IMG/VR virus record: IMGVR_UViG_3300010429_000387
Span: 288,001-352,000 of that record
Source: a virus
Lineage: Duplodnaviria > Caudoviricetes
Length of the DNA stretch: 64,000 nucleotides
Direction: 5' to 3' (one strand)
The position numbers and the translations under genes were made by a program. Under the pieces are notes generated by a model. The model searched no databases and had not been told where the DNA came from. It was given only the letters and a program-made list of their open reading frames with translations. This document shows positions 870 to 62,345 of this stretch, piece by piece (positions within the stretch are counted from its first letter, which is position 1; each line of letters starts with the position of its first letter).

Positions 870-875
870 GGTGTA
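870..875 (+). promoter_or_regulatory. Class A motif GGTGTA (first of >20 copies upstream of starts)
   Basis: 8 nt before GTG 884; other copies listed in findings. Confidence 0.75.
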
Positions 876-883
876 TTATCATC

Positions 884-1237
884 GTGACCTCAAGCCACCG
901 AACACTCTTGGCGGTTACCCGACTCCTGAAGTCCCAAATGAGGCTCTTTGTCTATGAGCGGAAGAGTTCCGAGGGGGCAGGTGACTACTGGGAACCCTTT
1001 CTCACAGTAGAGCAGGACTTCCTGATCGGTGCTCAGGGGGAGTGGACGGAGGTGCTCCAGCAATGGATGTCCCAGGGTGGGTCCAAGGAGGAGCTTGACT
1101 TCCTGGTCCAGCAGGGGTGCAAGGAGGCTCGGTTGGGGGTGGTTCGAGCCCTTACTGAGAGGGTTCCGGAGGTGGACAGCATCTTAGCTGACTTCCTCGC
1201 TTCTGGCCGGTGTTGCATCCTCCAAGGGAACAACTGA
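884..1237 (+). CDS. Hypothetical protein
   Basis: ORF after class A motif; TGATG coupling to next gene. Confidence 0.7.
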   Translation: MTSSHRTLLAVTRLLKSQMRLFVYERKSSEGAGDYWEPFLTVEQDFLIGAQGEWTEVLQQWMSQGGSKEELDFLVQQGCKEARLGVVRALTERVPEVDSILADFLASGRCCILQGNN

Positions 1238-1764
1238 TGGAGCTTGGCGATCTGGTTCAGTACCAAGACAAGCGGTGGCTGGTCACGAGCTACGACCGGG
1301 TAGCTCGCCTGATGACACTCTACAGCCTGGATGGGTCGAAGATAGAGCTTCCTCGGGAGTTCGACCGGACCCACACGGCTGAGCTGGGGGTTGTTGCCAA
1401 CCCTCCGAAGCAATGGCCGATGCTGACTGCTCCCTTCAAGAGCGGGGCGGGTCCTTTCGTCAGGTTGGTTGTCCCTGGACCCCCTGGCAGGGACTCTGAG
1501 AGGGTTCTGGAACCTTGGGTGGATTGGGTCCCGAGCGACTTTGCCAGAGAGGGCGGGTCCTTCTTCGTTCGACCCGAGGTCCGACTCCTTCCCGGTATGC
1601 TCTTGTTGGCAACCCATAGAAGTGGGTCCTTGATCCGGATCGTCGTGCCCAAGACGTTCGGCACGGTGGCTCACCGGGTGGCAGTTTCCAAGGCCAGGGC
1701 GCCAGCCGCAAGGCCATCCGAACAGAACCGATTCACCAGACTCTTCAATGACGATGACGACTAA
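1237..1764 (+). CDS. Hypothetical protein with C-terminal RF tag (NRFTRLFNDDDD)
   Basis: ATG at 1237 overlaps previous stop. Confidence 0.75.
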   Translation: MELGDLVQYQDKRWLVTSYDRVARLMTLYSLDGSKIELPREFDRTHTAELGVVANPPKQWPMLTAPFKSGAGPFVRLVVPGPPGRDSERVLEPWVDWVPSDFAREGGSFFVRPEVRLLPGMLLLATHRSGSLIRIVVPKTFGTVAHRVAVSKARAPAARPSEQNRFTRLFNDDDD

Positions 1765-2392
1765 GCGCAAGCTCCCCATAGTGGTCGAGAACTCGGTCGG
1801 AAAGGTCGAAGTTCTTCGGCACGATATGGCTTCGAGCTTCGAGCGAAGAATCCAGGATGAGATCCCCAAGCACGGGGCTAGGGTCACCTGTAGCACTGGA
1901 TGTGCTTGGTGCTGTTACCACCCAATAGCCATCTCGATCCTTGAGGGAATCCTCATCTACCGGTGGCTCCTGAAGCATCGAAAGTGGACCCTCGGACTCA
2001 AGGAGAGGTTGAGGTCCACAGCGGACAAGCAGTTCGGGACGACCTACGAGATGTGGCTCCTCTCGATGATCCCATGCCCCCTCTTGAACGAGAAGAAGCG
2101 CTGTATGGCCTACCTCGCAAGGCCACTGATCTGTCGAGCTTACTACGCCATCTCAGACCCATACTACTGTCACCCTCATCGACTTGGCGACTCCACCCAG
2201 ATCATTCCTCGTGACGACATAGCGGATCCTTTCCACCTGGAGCAGGAGAAGATTCTGCGAAAGCACAACCTCCAGATGATGACGATGCCCATCGGGTCAG
2301 CCTTGCTACTGGCTGAGAGGGTCTGCTTGGGGGAGGTGGATCTAGACACCATCGACTCCATTCTCCTCAAGGAATACGGGGAAAAGGGATGA
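1748..2392 (+). CDS. YkgJ/FliB-like cysteine-cluster (Fe-S/Zn) protein
   Basis: CxxxCxxCC (CSTGCAWCC), CPLL...C..Y..RPLICR. Confidence 0.8.
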   Translation: MTMTTKRKLPIVVENSVGKVEVLRHDMASSFERRIQDEIPKHGARVTCSTGCAWCCYHPIAISILEGILIYRWLLKHRKWTLGLKERLRSTADKQFGTTYEMWLLSMIPCPLLNEKKRCMAYLARPLICRAYYAISDPYYCHPHRLGDSTQIIPRDDIADPFHLEQEKILRKHNLQMMTMPIGSALLLAERVCLGEVDLDTIDSILLKEYGEKG

Positions 2393-2691
2393 AACTCACA
2401 TGTTCTGTATGTGGTCGAGAGCGTGATGAGGAGGCGATGACCATCTTCTCACCGACTACCAAGGAGAAGGCAGCCATGCGGAAGATGGGTGAGGAGAAGC
2501 CCCTCGACAAGTACCCCTTCTGTCGGGCTTGTATTAGGCTGCTCTCCAAGCCAGAGACGGCGATTCCCCTGATGAAGGGGATCGTCCAGTTCAAGGCCCG
2601 CTCTGCTGGTGTATCGGTACAGGATGCTGAGGCCATTGCGGAGCGGTATGGGAACAAGGTCCTGGCTGTGACTCCTAAGCCTCGCTCGTGA
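2389..2691 (+). CDS. Small CxxC/CxxC zinc-finger-like protein
   Basis: CSVC and CRAC; ATGA overlap. Confidence 0.6.
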   Translation: MKLTCSVCGRERDEEAMTIFSPTTKEKAAMRKMGEEKPLDKYPFCRACIRLLSKPETAIPLMKGIVQFKARSAGVSVQDAEAIAERYGNKVLAVTPKPRS

Positions 2692-2698
2692 GAGACCC

Positions 2699-60808: not shown

Positions 60809-60892
60809 GACTATCCTTACACCAGGCCAACATTTTCGGTGTATCTGATGGTGACCGGCCAGAAACCTAACCCTGGCAGAACGGAGACAAGG

Positions 60893-61321
60893 ATGACGAG
60901 TGTAGCGACCAGCAAAGCATGGGGCCTTCTGAAGAACCTCAAGACCAACCTCGAAGAGTTGAGGTCTCTTTTCCCGGACGTGACCGATCCGGCCATCCTG
61001 AACATGGCCCAGGTGCTCGTTCCTGGGGCCGACCCGAACCCGGCACCTGTTCCGGTAGAGGCGGAGAAGGCGAAGCCGACCAAGGCTCTGGCTCGGGCCA
61101 AGAGGGTGGACAAGGCCCCCGAGGGGGAGTCCCCTTCGGAGATGGTCCTTCGAGTCGTCCAGCAGTCGTTCAAGGACAAGGAGTTCACCTACGTCGATCT
61201 CGCCAACAAGACGGGGCAGCCCCCAAAGCTCATGAGCGGTGGGATCAGTGTTTTGAGCCGCAAGGGGCTGATCGAGTCCGTCCGCAAGGATGGGCAGATC
61301 AACGTCTGGCGTCTTCTCTGA
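60893..61321 (+). CDS. Winged-helix DNA-binding protein
   Basis: FTYVDLANKTG...ISVLSRKGLIESV; start uncertain. Confidence 0.6.
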   Translation: MTSVATSKAWGLLKNLKTNLEELRSLFPDVTDPAILNMAQVLVPGADPNPAPVPVEAEKAKPTKALARAKRVDKAPEGESPSEMVLRVVQQSFKDKEFTYVDLANKTGQPPKLMSGGISVLSRKGLIESVRKDGQINVWRLL

Positions 61322-61350
61322 GAGATACACCGCTTGGTGTATCTGCTAAG

Positions 61351-61872
61351 ATGCACCAGATCCTCTTCTACAGCCCGAAAGAGAGCCCTTATGGGTGCTT
61401 CTCGAACTTCTCCCGACACAAGGTTCAGGTATACGGCCAAACCTGGGAGACCTCGGAGCACCCCTTCCAGGCGATGAAGTATCACCCTCATCGGCCGGAC
61501 CTCGTACAGATGGTCCTCAAGGCGGTGGGACCGATGCGGGCAGCCGAGATAGGACGGGACCGTGGGAATCCTATCCGTCCAGACTGGGACAGCCTCGTCC
61601 CGAATCCAAGTCCCCTTGTAGTGGATGACGGACGAGGTCCTGCCCCTGTCATAGAGCGGGTCAAGGACCAGATCATGTACGAGGTTGTCTGGGCCAAGTT
61701 CACCCAGCACAACGATCTACAGAGCATCCTCCTGAGCACAGGGGCCAGCCCGATCATCGAGAACGCCATCCATGACCCCTACTGGGGGTGGGGGTCCTCG
61801 CAAACTGGGGTGAACCGTCTCGGGAAGATCCTGATGGCGGTTCGTTCCGAGTTGCAGGTTGGCCTCAGATGA
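61351..61872 (+). CDS. NADAR (YbiA-like) family protein
   Basis: FSNF, TSEH.FQA.K, RPDW, KFTQH..L...LLSTG, D.YWG, G.NRLG.ILM.VR; GGTGTA-N9-ATG. Confidence 0.92.
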   Translation: MHQILFYSPKESPYGCFSNFSRHKVQVYGQTWETSEHPFQAMKYHPHRPDLVQMVLKAVGPMRAAEIGRDRGNPIRPDWDSLVPNPSPLVVDDGRGPAPVIERVKDQIMYEVVWAKFTQHNDLQSILLSTGASPIIENAIHDPYWGWGSSQTGVNRLGKILMAVRSELQVGLR

Positions 61873-62257
61873 CAGGTCTCCTGTCAAACCTGCTCGGGGG
61901 TCCCTCGATGACCTCACACCCGATGTCCCGAAAGGCAGCGGTGATGAGAGAGGTCGTCTCGATGGGCCGGGAGATAATCCGGGTCTCACGCCCGTTGGTG
62001 ATGGAGGCGTTGGAAGCGGCCGGGAGCACATGGACCCGAGGAGGCTCACGTCTCCAAGACTCGGGTACCCGGAGTTCGACGCCCTTCCCTTCGGCAAGTG
62101 ACTCAACCGCCAGCAAGAACAAGCCGGGAGCCGAGTCCACTGAAACAACGATGGGTCCCTCGTTGTTCCAAGCGGCCTGGAACTTCTGGATCTCTGCCGC
62201 CCCGAGGGTCAGCGGGTTCTTGGGACGGTTCTTCGGATTGAAGAGAGGGGATGCCAC
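61865..62257 (-). CDS. Hypothetical protein
   Basis: GGTGTA at 62268-62273, 10 nt before GTG 62257; ends PSRFDRRPVI, another RF-type terminus. Confidence 0.6.
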   Translation of the reverse strand: MASPLFNPKNRPKNPLTLGAAEIQKFQAAWNNEGPIVVSVDSAPGLFLLAVESLAEGKGVELRVPESWRREPPRVHVLPAASNASITNGRETRIISRPIETTSLITAAFRDIGCEVIEGPPSRFDRRPVI

Positions 62258-62345
62258 GATAAGATCCTACACCTGTGAGGAACCCGAGGGCTGGGCTTCT
62301 GATTCCGGTGTAACAACAGAGGAACCCGAACGGAGTCAAACGATT

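Follow-up and report, generated by a model that had tools for sequence, protein, structure and literature searches.

Within 64,000 nucleotides (nt) of viral DNA, positions 288,001-352,000 of one virus record that is 407,078 bp long and ends in direct terminal repeats (IMGVR_UViG_3300010429_000387; this whole stretch is called the window below, and coordinates refer to it unless marked as genome positions), the short sequence YGGTGTA recurs just before start codons and before the 5' end of a tRNA gene. What could hold the same box at the same distance from the first base of a codon and from the first base of a tRNA? The observation itself, YGGTGTA at a fixed gap before starts, is confirmed. From the sequence evidence presented here, we consider it likely that the box is the sole conserved element of a phage-specific promoter class, referred to as class A, which gives leaderless RNAs and is read by a phage sigma factor.

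The record is that of a huge phage, because it combines its length and direct terminal repeats with a large tRNA set (51 tRNA-like genes and a transfer-messenger RNA (tmRNA); the region at 35-79 kb contains the tmRNA and 49 of the tRNAs, and the window contains two) and a coding density of 92% under genetic code table 11. Alternative codes with TAG or TGA as sense codons gave no better coding density. The G+C content is 57.9%, and genes were taken from a simple codon-usage gene caller, which returned 483 of them. A megablast search with 20 kb of the window against a phage collection gave no match.

Spacing of the box before start codons and tRNA genes

The window contains 36 copies of YGGTGTA, against 5.54 +/- 2.4 in dinucleotide shuffles, the richest of which held 13. 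We then took all 250 copies of GGTGTA in the genome and recorded the gap from each to the start of an open reading frame (ORF) of at least 60 amino acids (aa). Gap 9 held 28 copies and gap 10 held 27, while most other gaps held 0-8 and one held 10. None of 59 permuted hexamers produced a peak of this kind, and the positional enrichment that the first-pass annotation of the window had proposed is therefore seen genome-wide as a sharp peak at 9-10 nt. An independent count agreed, with 48 occurrences of GGTGTA-N9/10-ATG in the genome compared to 5 of a reversed control pattern, and when k-mers upstream of all candidate starts were scanned without bias, GGTGT/GTGTA at -15 was among the strongest positional signals. 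About one gene in eight and two tRNAs have GGTGTA 9-10 nt upstream. Half of all copies fall within the 14% of the genome that is intergenic, where the hexamer is sixfold enriched.

All 17 start-proximal sites of the window were rechecked one by one, and every coordinate and gap was as first described. On the plus strand, a spacing of 10 nt is found for the boxes at 14124..14130 (before GTG 14141; 552 aa, transglycosylase domain), 17943..17949 (ATG 17960; 96 aa, with a terminator-like hairpin directly upstream), 49614..49620 (ATG 49631; 175 aa) and 52603..52609 (ATG 52620; 128 aa). The boxes at 8505..8511 (ATG 8521; a 387-aa nucleotidyltransferase, phrog_388), 31970..31976 (ATG 31986; 184 aa) and 61335..61341 (ATG 61351; 173 aa) stand 9 nt away, and the one at 869..875 stands 8 nt before GTG 884 (117 aa). 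On the minus strand, the 9-nt spacing is seen at 49163..49169 (GTG 49153; 504 aa), 53622..53628 (ATG 53612; 125 aa) and 60818..60824 (ATG 60808; 496 aa; this box is back-to-back with one at 60837), and the 10-nt spacing at 6078..6084 (GTG 6067; 81 aa), 33483..33489 (ATG 33472; 215 aa), 56109..56115 (ATG 56098; 153 aa) and 62268..62273 (GTG 62257; 130 aa; here the hexamer is preceded by A and not by a pyrimidine). The box at 57284..57290 is 11 nt from ATG 57272 (99 aa), and the box at 43675..43681, with 12 nt to ATG 43662 (161 aa), is an outlier in spacing.

The start codons defined in this way are real, since Pfam domain models begin at residues 3-6 of the motif-defined CoaE, NAD-epimerase, ClpX zinc finger and Dcd proteins. 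Among called genes, class A starts comprise 41 ATG and 11 GTG codons and no TTG.

The tRNA genes provide the second part of the argument. The tRNA-Lys(CTT) gene on the minus strand was placed at 59309-59236 by ARAGORN and at 59309-59237 by Rfam, and its 7-bp acceptor stem starts at 59309. With the 5' end agreed by the two programs and the stem, the hexamer at 59319-59324 (minus strand; 59319..59325 with its pyrimidine) lies exactly 9 nt before nucleotide 1, as had been claimed. The tRNA-Lys(CTT) gene is the first of a two-tRNA unit, and the presumed transcript of the box would cover it and a second tRNA (59126..59309, minus strand). A tRNA with a CUA anticodon at genome position 35459 has the box 10 nt before its nucleotide 1, and two further tRNAs have it at 14 and 21 nt. 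For 51 RNA genes, the number expected to carry a box at a gap of 9-10 nt is 0.03 by genome-wide density and about 0.2 by intergenic density. That start codons and nucleotide 1 of a tRNA are preceded by the box at the same distance speaks more strongly than any other finding for a spacing determined by the start of transcription.

The tRNA downstream of tRNA-Lys, at 59126-59200 (minus strand), is unusual in its own right. It has an 8-nt anticodon loop (CUCUCAUU), and ARAGORN assigns it the four-base anticodon CUCA; judging from this loop, it could be an opal or quadruplet decoder. CUA-anticodon tRNAs are encoded at genome positions 35459 and 35791, although table 11 fits the genes best.

Anatomy of the element and its relation to Shine-Dalgarno sequences

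In an alignment of 65 sites, information was restricted to GGTGTA and two preceding pyrimidines (YY). A search for a -35 box upstream of class A sites, by position profile and by k-mer enrichment, found none; the only enriched upstream 5-mer was the reverse complement of the box, contributed by divergent partners. The proposed single-box character of the signal is upheld by these sites, which have no -35 element or other upstream information besides YY. We also tried to read the box as a canonical TANNNT element and rejected this, with a T four bases past the TA in 22 of the 65 sites, a weak enrichment. The position before class A starts is C in 62% of cases, and G is enriched at -4 (54%) and -3 (44%). 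Transcription usually initiates at a purine (+1) that is preceded by a pyrimidine (-1).

A second element of fixed spacing, class B, is present in the same genome. It consists of GGTTGAAR, a spacer of about 15-16 nt, and (C)GTTGTA, followed by exactly 5 nt to ATG, with 26 copies at gap 5; the k-mer scan upstream of candidate starts also recovers it, as ACGTTGTAG ending 5 nt before starts. Class B sites precede small ORFs, for the most part on the minus strand close to the two ends of the genome, and have C at -1 in 84%. Those of the window are at 6567 (+), 7262 (+) and 37976 (-). By its sequence, class B looks like a two-box promoter of the extracytoplasmic function (ECF) type and likewise leaderless. 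TTG starts are found in none of 77 class A or B genes versus 43 of 406 genes (11%) elsewhere.

Class A boxes are found preferentially where genes diverge. The upstream neighbor is divergent for 25 of 51 class A genes compared to 78 of 406 others (odds ratio 4.0, p = 9e-6). In four divergent gene pairs, with spacers of 21, 35, 37, and 79 nt, the spacer consists of two boxes in opposite orientation, and each box stands 9-11 nt before the start that it faces. Both members of such a pair require a promoter, and the spacer contains no other conserved feature; to judge by these arrangements, the box behaves like the head of a transcription unit. Terminators point the same way: a strong hairpin with a T-tract ends 2-8 nt before the box at window positions 870 (2 nt short of the box at 869..875, plus strand) and 17944 and at genome position 82063. 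Where a terminator abuts the box, the downstream promoter must therefore fit between the terminator and the start codon.

The tightest of the divergent arrangements is at genome 355122-355144, where the start codons are 21 nt apart and the spacer is a palindrome of two overlapping opposed class A boxes.

The phage also uses ordinary Shine-Dalgarno (SD) sequences. GGAG/GAGG forms a broad hump at gaps of 4-11 nt before first starts, and the anti-SD sequence of the host must therefore be canonical. The box peak, only 2 nt wide, is much narrower than this hump, and the GGTG of the box is 11-12 nt away from the start. By established SD geometry, GGTG would be on the wrong side for pairing with a CACC preceding the anti-SD core. 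With the box at gap 8-11, just 3 of 52 sites (6%) had an SD-like 4-mer 4-11 nt upstream of the start, in keeping with the earlier remark that most start-proximal sites have no convincing SD in the gap; the corresponding numbers were 6 of 19 sites (32%) at gap 12-20 and 19 of 39 (49%) at gap 21-70. Being rare at the short gap and common behind distant boxes, SD-like sequences indicate that the box stands in for an SD only at short spacing. The box is not a Shine-Dalgarno sequence: neither its complementarity nor its spacing is that of one, and it is also present before tRNAs.

The copies that had been described as lying further upstream of their starts behave as expected from this distribution. 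Three of them are 33-41 nt away and have an SD in between: 11667..11673 (+), 40 nt before ATG 11714 with AGGAG in the leader; 20287..20293 (+), 41 nt before ATG 20335 with GAGG; and 62306..62312 (+), 33 nt before an ATG with GGAG. The fourth, at 40776..40782 (+), is about 94 nt before ATG 40877, which would imply a long leader or a small RNA. A box at 60837..60843 (+) similarly precedes a leader of about 40 nt, with GGAGA 5 nt before ATG 60893 (142 aa). The view that the box is a transcription signal and not a ribosome-binding site, put forward in the first-pass annotation, is favored by every test we could make at the level of sequence.

Along the genome, class A genes are concentrated in two bidirectional arms at 0-100 kb and 260-407 kb and are rare in the block at 100-260 kb, which is transcribed almost wholly on one strand. 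Identified products are a dCTP deaminase, two N6/N4 DNA methylases, a dephospho-CoA kinase, an epimerase, an intein-containing ClpX, a nucleotidyltransferase, and a transglycosylase-domain protein. Such contents suit a non-structural, early or middle, gene class. The ClpX homologue headed by a class A box, at genome 280061-282388 (our locus L102), is split by an intein with Hint and LAGLIDADG domains.

A candidate sigma factor and its relatives

Either a phage sigma factor or a phage RNA polymerase had been suggested as the reader of the box. The sigma half of this suggestion is supported by genes that the phage encodes; for the other half, no match of a multisubunit polymerase was found. Searches with Rpb2_6 (PF00562) and Rpb1_2 (PF00623) gave no match at E <= 1 in the phage, with positive controls recovered in 14 of 14 genomes, though very divergent polymerases could escape such a search. 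The model for T7-type polymerases (PF00940) had no match in the phage, but its control also matched nothing anywhere. We favor a phage sigma over a phage RNA polymerase as the reader because Rpb2_6 and Rpb1_2 are unmatched and an ECF-like sigma family is encoded.

Two sigma-like genes stand in tandem at genome 58561-59811 (416 aa) and 59820-60614 (264 aa), which together correspond to positions 3562-5615 of our locus L002. The 416-aa protein has a weak match to Sigma70_r2 / TIGR02937 (first half of region 2), an HNH endonuclease module inserted after this half, and a C-terminal helix-turn-helix (HTH). Single-sequence comparison with solved structures gave nothing useful for the 264-aa protein and only the HNH domain for the 416-aa protein, and no homologues of the sigma were found in IMG/VR. 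An exhaustive search with the 264-aa protein yielded 157 cluster representatives. A profile built from 55 of these 157 matches Mycobacterium tuberculosis SigH in regions 2 and 4 with E = 1.2e-7 (profile positions 93-227, chain 41-173), and it also matches SigR, SigL, and SigE; members of the family match Sigma70_r2, r4_2, and Sigma70_ECF.

The AlphaFold2 model of the 264-aa protein has a predicted local distance difference test score (pLDDT) of 87, and its top 23 structural neighbors are all sigma factors, with middling Z-scores of 4.8-7.4. Region 2 of the model aligns to SigK (Z 7.4, root-mean-square deviation (rmsd) 2.8 over 80 residues), and the C-terminal domain aligns to gp36, WhiG, and sigma-28 region 4, the closest being gp36 of phage phiEco32. 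Foldseek alone gave weak E-values, one of its hits being the gp79-dependent open complex that pointed to phiEco32, and the assignment rests on structural re-alignment together with the profile search. On these grounds, modeling and profiles included, the identification of the 264-aa protein as a divergent ECF-type sigma is well supported.

The box was then looked for in relatives that carry this family, and four metagenomic phages retain it. Contigs L088/L089, L093, and L094 (GC 49-57%) encode sigma homologues with 51%, 43%, and 43% identity, respectively, in a syntenic locus. In all of these, GGTGTA stands 8-10 nt before the GTG of the gene after the sigma (in both L089 and L093, a methylase gene). 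The dcd gene of two of these relatives is preceded by GGTGTA at 9-10 nt, and in L093 the hexamer is also found 9 nt before a deoxyribosyltransferase gene. The flanking bases have diverged, the orthologous proteins align from residue 1 of their N-termini, and the starts predicted from the box mostly match the gene starts given by the depositors. The nucleotidyltransferase led to three distant relatives, in which the box was absent; the 340-kb one among them, which lacks the sigma family, showed no genome-wide enrichment (4 pattern matches vs 2 for the control). The link between this sigma and the box is thus one of co-occurrence in sequence, which makes the sigma a candidate for its reader.

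Three observations concern the sigma genes and their relatives more loosely. A sigma-70-like promoter sequence, TTGACA-N17-CTAAAC, lies upstream of the 416-aa gene. A 228-aa protein encoded at genome 111935-112621 (positions 1291-1977 of locus L006) has two HTH domains of the sigma region 4 type and no region 2, and from this composition it could be an anti-sigma-like or appropriator-type regulator. In contig L113 (JGI 3300050209 contig, 156 kb), whose sigma is 32% identical, GGTGTA is not start-proximal, and TAAGGTA recurs 11-12 nt before two starts; this may be a diverged box that co-varies with the sigma.

Proposed mechanism, rival explanations and known systems

In the mechanism that we propose, host core RNA polymerase would form a holoenzyme with a phage-encoded sigma, the 416-aa and 264-aa proteins being the candidates. 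This holoenzyme would bind the box at about -16/-15 to -11/-10 and would start transcription 10-11 nt past it. In about 55-65 genes the start point would be the A or G of the start codon, giving an mRNA with neither leader nor SD to be translated as a leaderless message; at two tRNA genes it would be nucleotide 1 of the tRNA. A box further upstream would produce a short leader with an ordinary SD. The broader idea that the phage has two promoter classes of exact spacing, each with its own phage sigma and with RNAs that start on their first functional base, so that tRNAs begun in this way would obtain their mature 5' end without RNase P, is one that we put forward only tentatively.

The closest known system, by analogy, is the single-element promoter of phiEco32 gp36. 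This sigma, with gp79, reads tAATGTAtA promoters that serve middle and late genes; AATGTA is centered at -11.5, and transcription starts 6-8 bp after the 9-bp element (PMC12276001; PMC8948821). The gap from TGTA there is consequently 8-10 nt, a range that includes the 9-10 nt seen here. Both systems have a single element with a TGTA core and no -35 consensus, and both would employ a phage-encoded, highly divergent sigma on the host core polymerase, as we propose for the present phage. The C-terminal domain of the 264-aa protein aligns with its gp36 counterpart at Z 6.6 (rmsd 3.2 over 69 residues, 25% identity), and it is by the structure of this domain that the two sigmas are likened. They differ in consensus (AATGTA there, GGTGTA here), in genome size (77 kb and 407 kb) and in the center of the element, which would be at -12.5 to -13.5 here, 1-2 nt further, if the start of transcription is the start codon. 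A start of transcription that would coincide with the start codon in dozens of genes is a further difference; a word search of PMC8948821 found no mention of such a placement.

Several points weigh against the promoter reading favored here. The box lacks a conserved downstream half (e.g. T at -7) in the 65 sites. ECF-type sigmas normally require a -35 box, and none is seen at class A sites. The register of class B, applied to class A, would put the start 4-5 nt before ATG. About half of the GGTGTA copies are inside genes, where they may be inactive. The ability of the host to translate leaderless mRNA is assumed. Finally, contigs whose sigma homologues are further removed (41% and 32% identity) had no box in the 10-21 kb sampled, which fits co-variation of box and sigma in this small sample.

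Of the rival explanations, the one nearest to our own keeps the promoter and, following class B, moves the start to about 6 nt past the box, which would leave leaders of 4-5 nt on the mRNAs and of 4 nt on the tRNAs. We regard this as unlikely. It draws on the 26 cases in which the class B TGTA is exactly 5 nt before ATG and on the enrichment of G at -4 and -3 of class A genes, yet with a leader of 4-5 nt the tight spacing of 9-10 nt to both start codons and tRNA nucleotide 1 has no obvious reason, and C at -1 with a purine at +1 fits a start at the codon itself. The phiEco32 starts, 8-10 nt past TGTA, also disagree with it (PMC8948821, PMC12276001).

An interpretation at the RNA level, with GGUGUA as a non-SD ribosome-binding site or a site for a phage translation factor, would account for the fixed distance to start codons and would suit a phage with so large an investment in translation (about 50 tRNAs and a tmRNA). 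It leaves unexplained the identical spacing before two tRNAs, as well as the enrichment at divergent gene heads and after terminators, and in the divergent spacers of 21-37 nt it would require both promoters to lie inside the neighboring gene. Moreover, canonical SD sequences are used elsewhere in the genome and stand behind the distant copies of the box, and GGUG could pair only with a CACC located 5' of the anti-SD core, so that it should sit nearer to the start than GGAG does, not 11-12 nt away. We consider this interpretation highly improbable. Hardly more probable is a box that serves as a regulator binding site (activator or operator half-site) or as an RNA-processing site, and not as a core promoter element. 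In its favor, palindromes with a partner box occur at genome 355122-355144 and window 61326-61341, but the majority of copies stand alone in the orientation of their gene, the vicinity offers no further conserved promoter element for a regulator to assist, and the position near -13 is the seat of sigma region 2 in known holoenzymes; processing would leave the enrichment at divergent heads unexplained.

With a leaderless promoter retained as the preferred reading, other known systems can be set beside it. Leaderless mRNAs are described, in the portions of the sources available to us, for Actinobacteria, Deinococcus, and phage lambda cI (PMC4633059, PMC3160421, 10.1101/2023.09.02.556006). As far as those portions go, the likeness lies in a promoter element directly before the start codon, no SD, and AUG/GUG starts. 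The element in those systems is the host housekeeping -10 (TANNNT), whereas the present one is a hexamer specific to the phage that lacks the downstream T, accompanied in the same genome by a second class (GTTGAAR-N15/16-CGTTGTA-N5-ATG). Late promoters of phage T4 (TATAAATA), read by the minimal phage sigma gp55, also consist of one short box near -10 with no -35. They differ in sequence, and T4 late mRNAs have leaders with an SD. For the tRNAs, the parallel is Nanoarchaeum equitans, which reportedly has leaderless tRNA genes and no RNase P (as Randau et al. are said to have described in 2008). In both cases, the placement of the promoter would allow the primary transcript to start on the first nucleotide of the tRNA. 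The archaeon uses TATA box and B recognition element (TATA/BRE) promoters and all of its tRNAs are affected, whereas only 2 of about 50 are here, and the second tRNA of the window unit still needs 5' processing.

A literature search turned up no paper in which GGTGTA serves as a phage promoter, and among the papers listed, none connects leaderless mRNA with jumbo or huge phages. To our knowledge, metagenomes are almost the only source of what is known about huge phages, and essentially nothing is known about how these regulate their genes. A promoter of six bases that can be read from sequence would mark transcription units and correct start codons in this phage and its relatives, and it would separate a temporal gene class that contains nucleotide metabolism, DNA methylases, ClpX, and auxiliary metabolism. 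If the reading is true, about one-eighth of the genes would be translated leaderless, which would call for a host, or a ribosome modified by the phage, that is good at leaderless mRNA; the box and its sigma would make a very small orthogonal expression part; and the tRNA cases would be, as far as we know, the first example in a bacterial virus of a tRNA 5' end set by transcription initiation.

Other features of the window and genome are more isolated. The adenylosuccinate synthetase (PurA) encoded at 22120-23457 (+) allowed no call on the host, its best cellular hits having about 45% identity and being scattered over Chloroflexota, Actinomycetota, Myxococcota, and Patescibacteria, and a search of IMG/VR for homologues of the 504-aa class A gene product found none. 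Around 60837-61341, about 500 bp contain four class A boxes. The outer pair heads divergent genes, presumed leaderless; the inner box at 60837 feeds the 142-aa ORF through its leader of about 40 nt with an SD, and the other inner box, at 61326-61332 (-), is antisense to this ORF and is the partner of the box at 61336 in a 9-bp inverted repeat. It might serve as an antisense promoter or form a hairpin.

A pyrimidine-rich CTCTTATC-like box is located 14-17 nt before the ATG of the sigma gene, both in this phage and in a distant relative, and CTTGTC-like boxes are located 12-20 nt before many tRNAs and the tmRNA. Boxes of these two kinds were noted at L002:4820-4853, at L111:80-103, and in L113 upstream of 4835 and 7947, and they probably represent a third promoter class.

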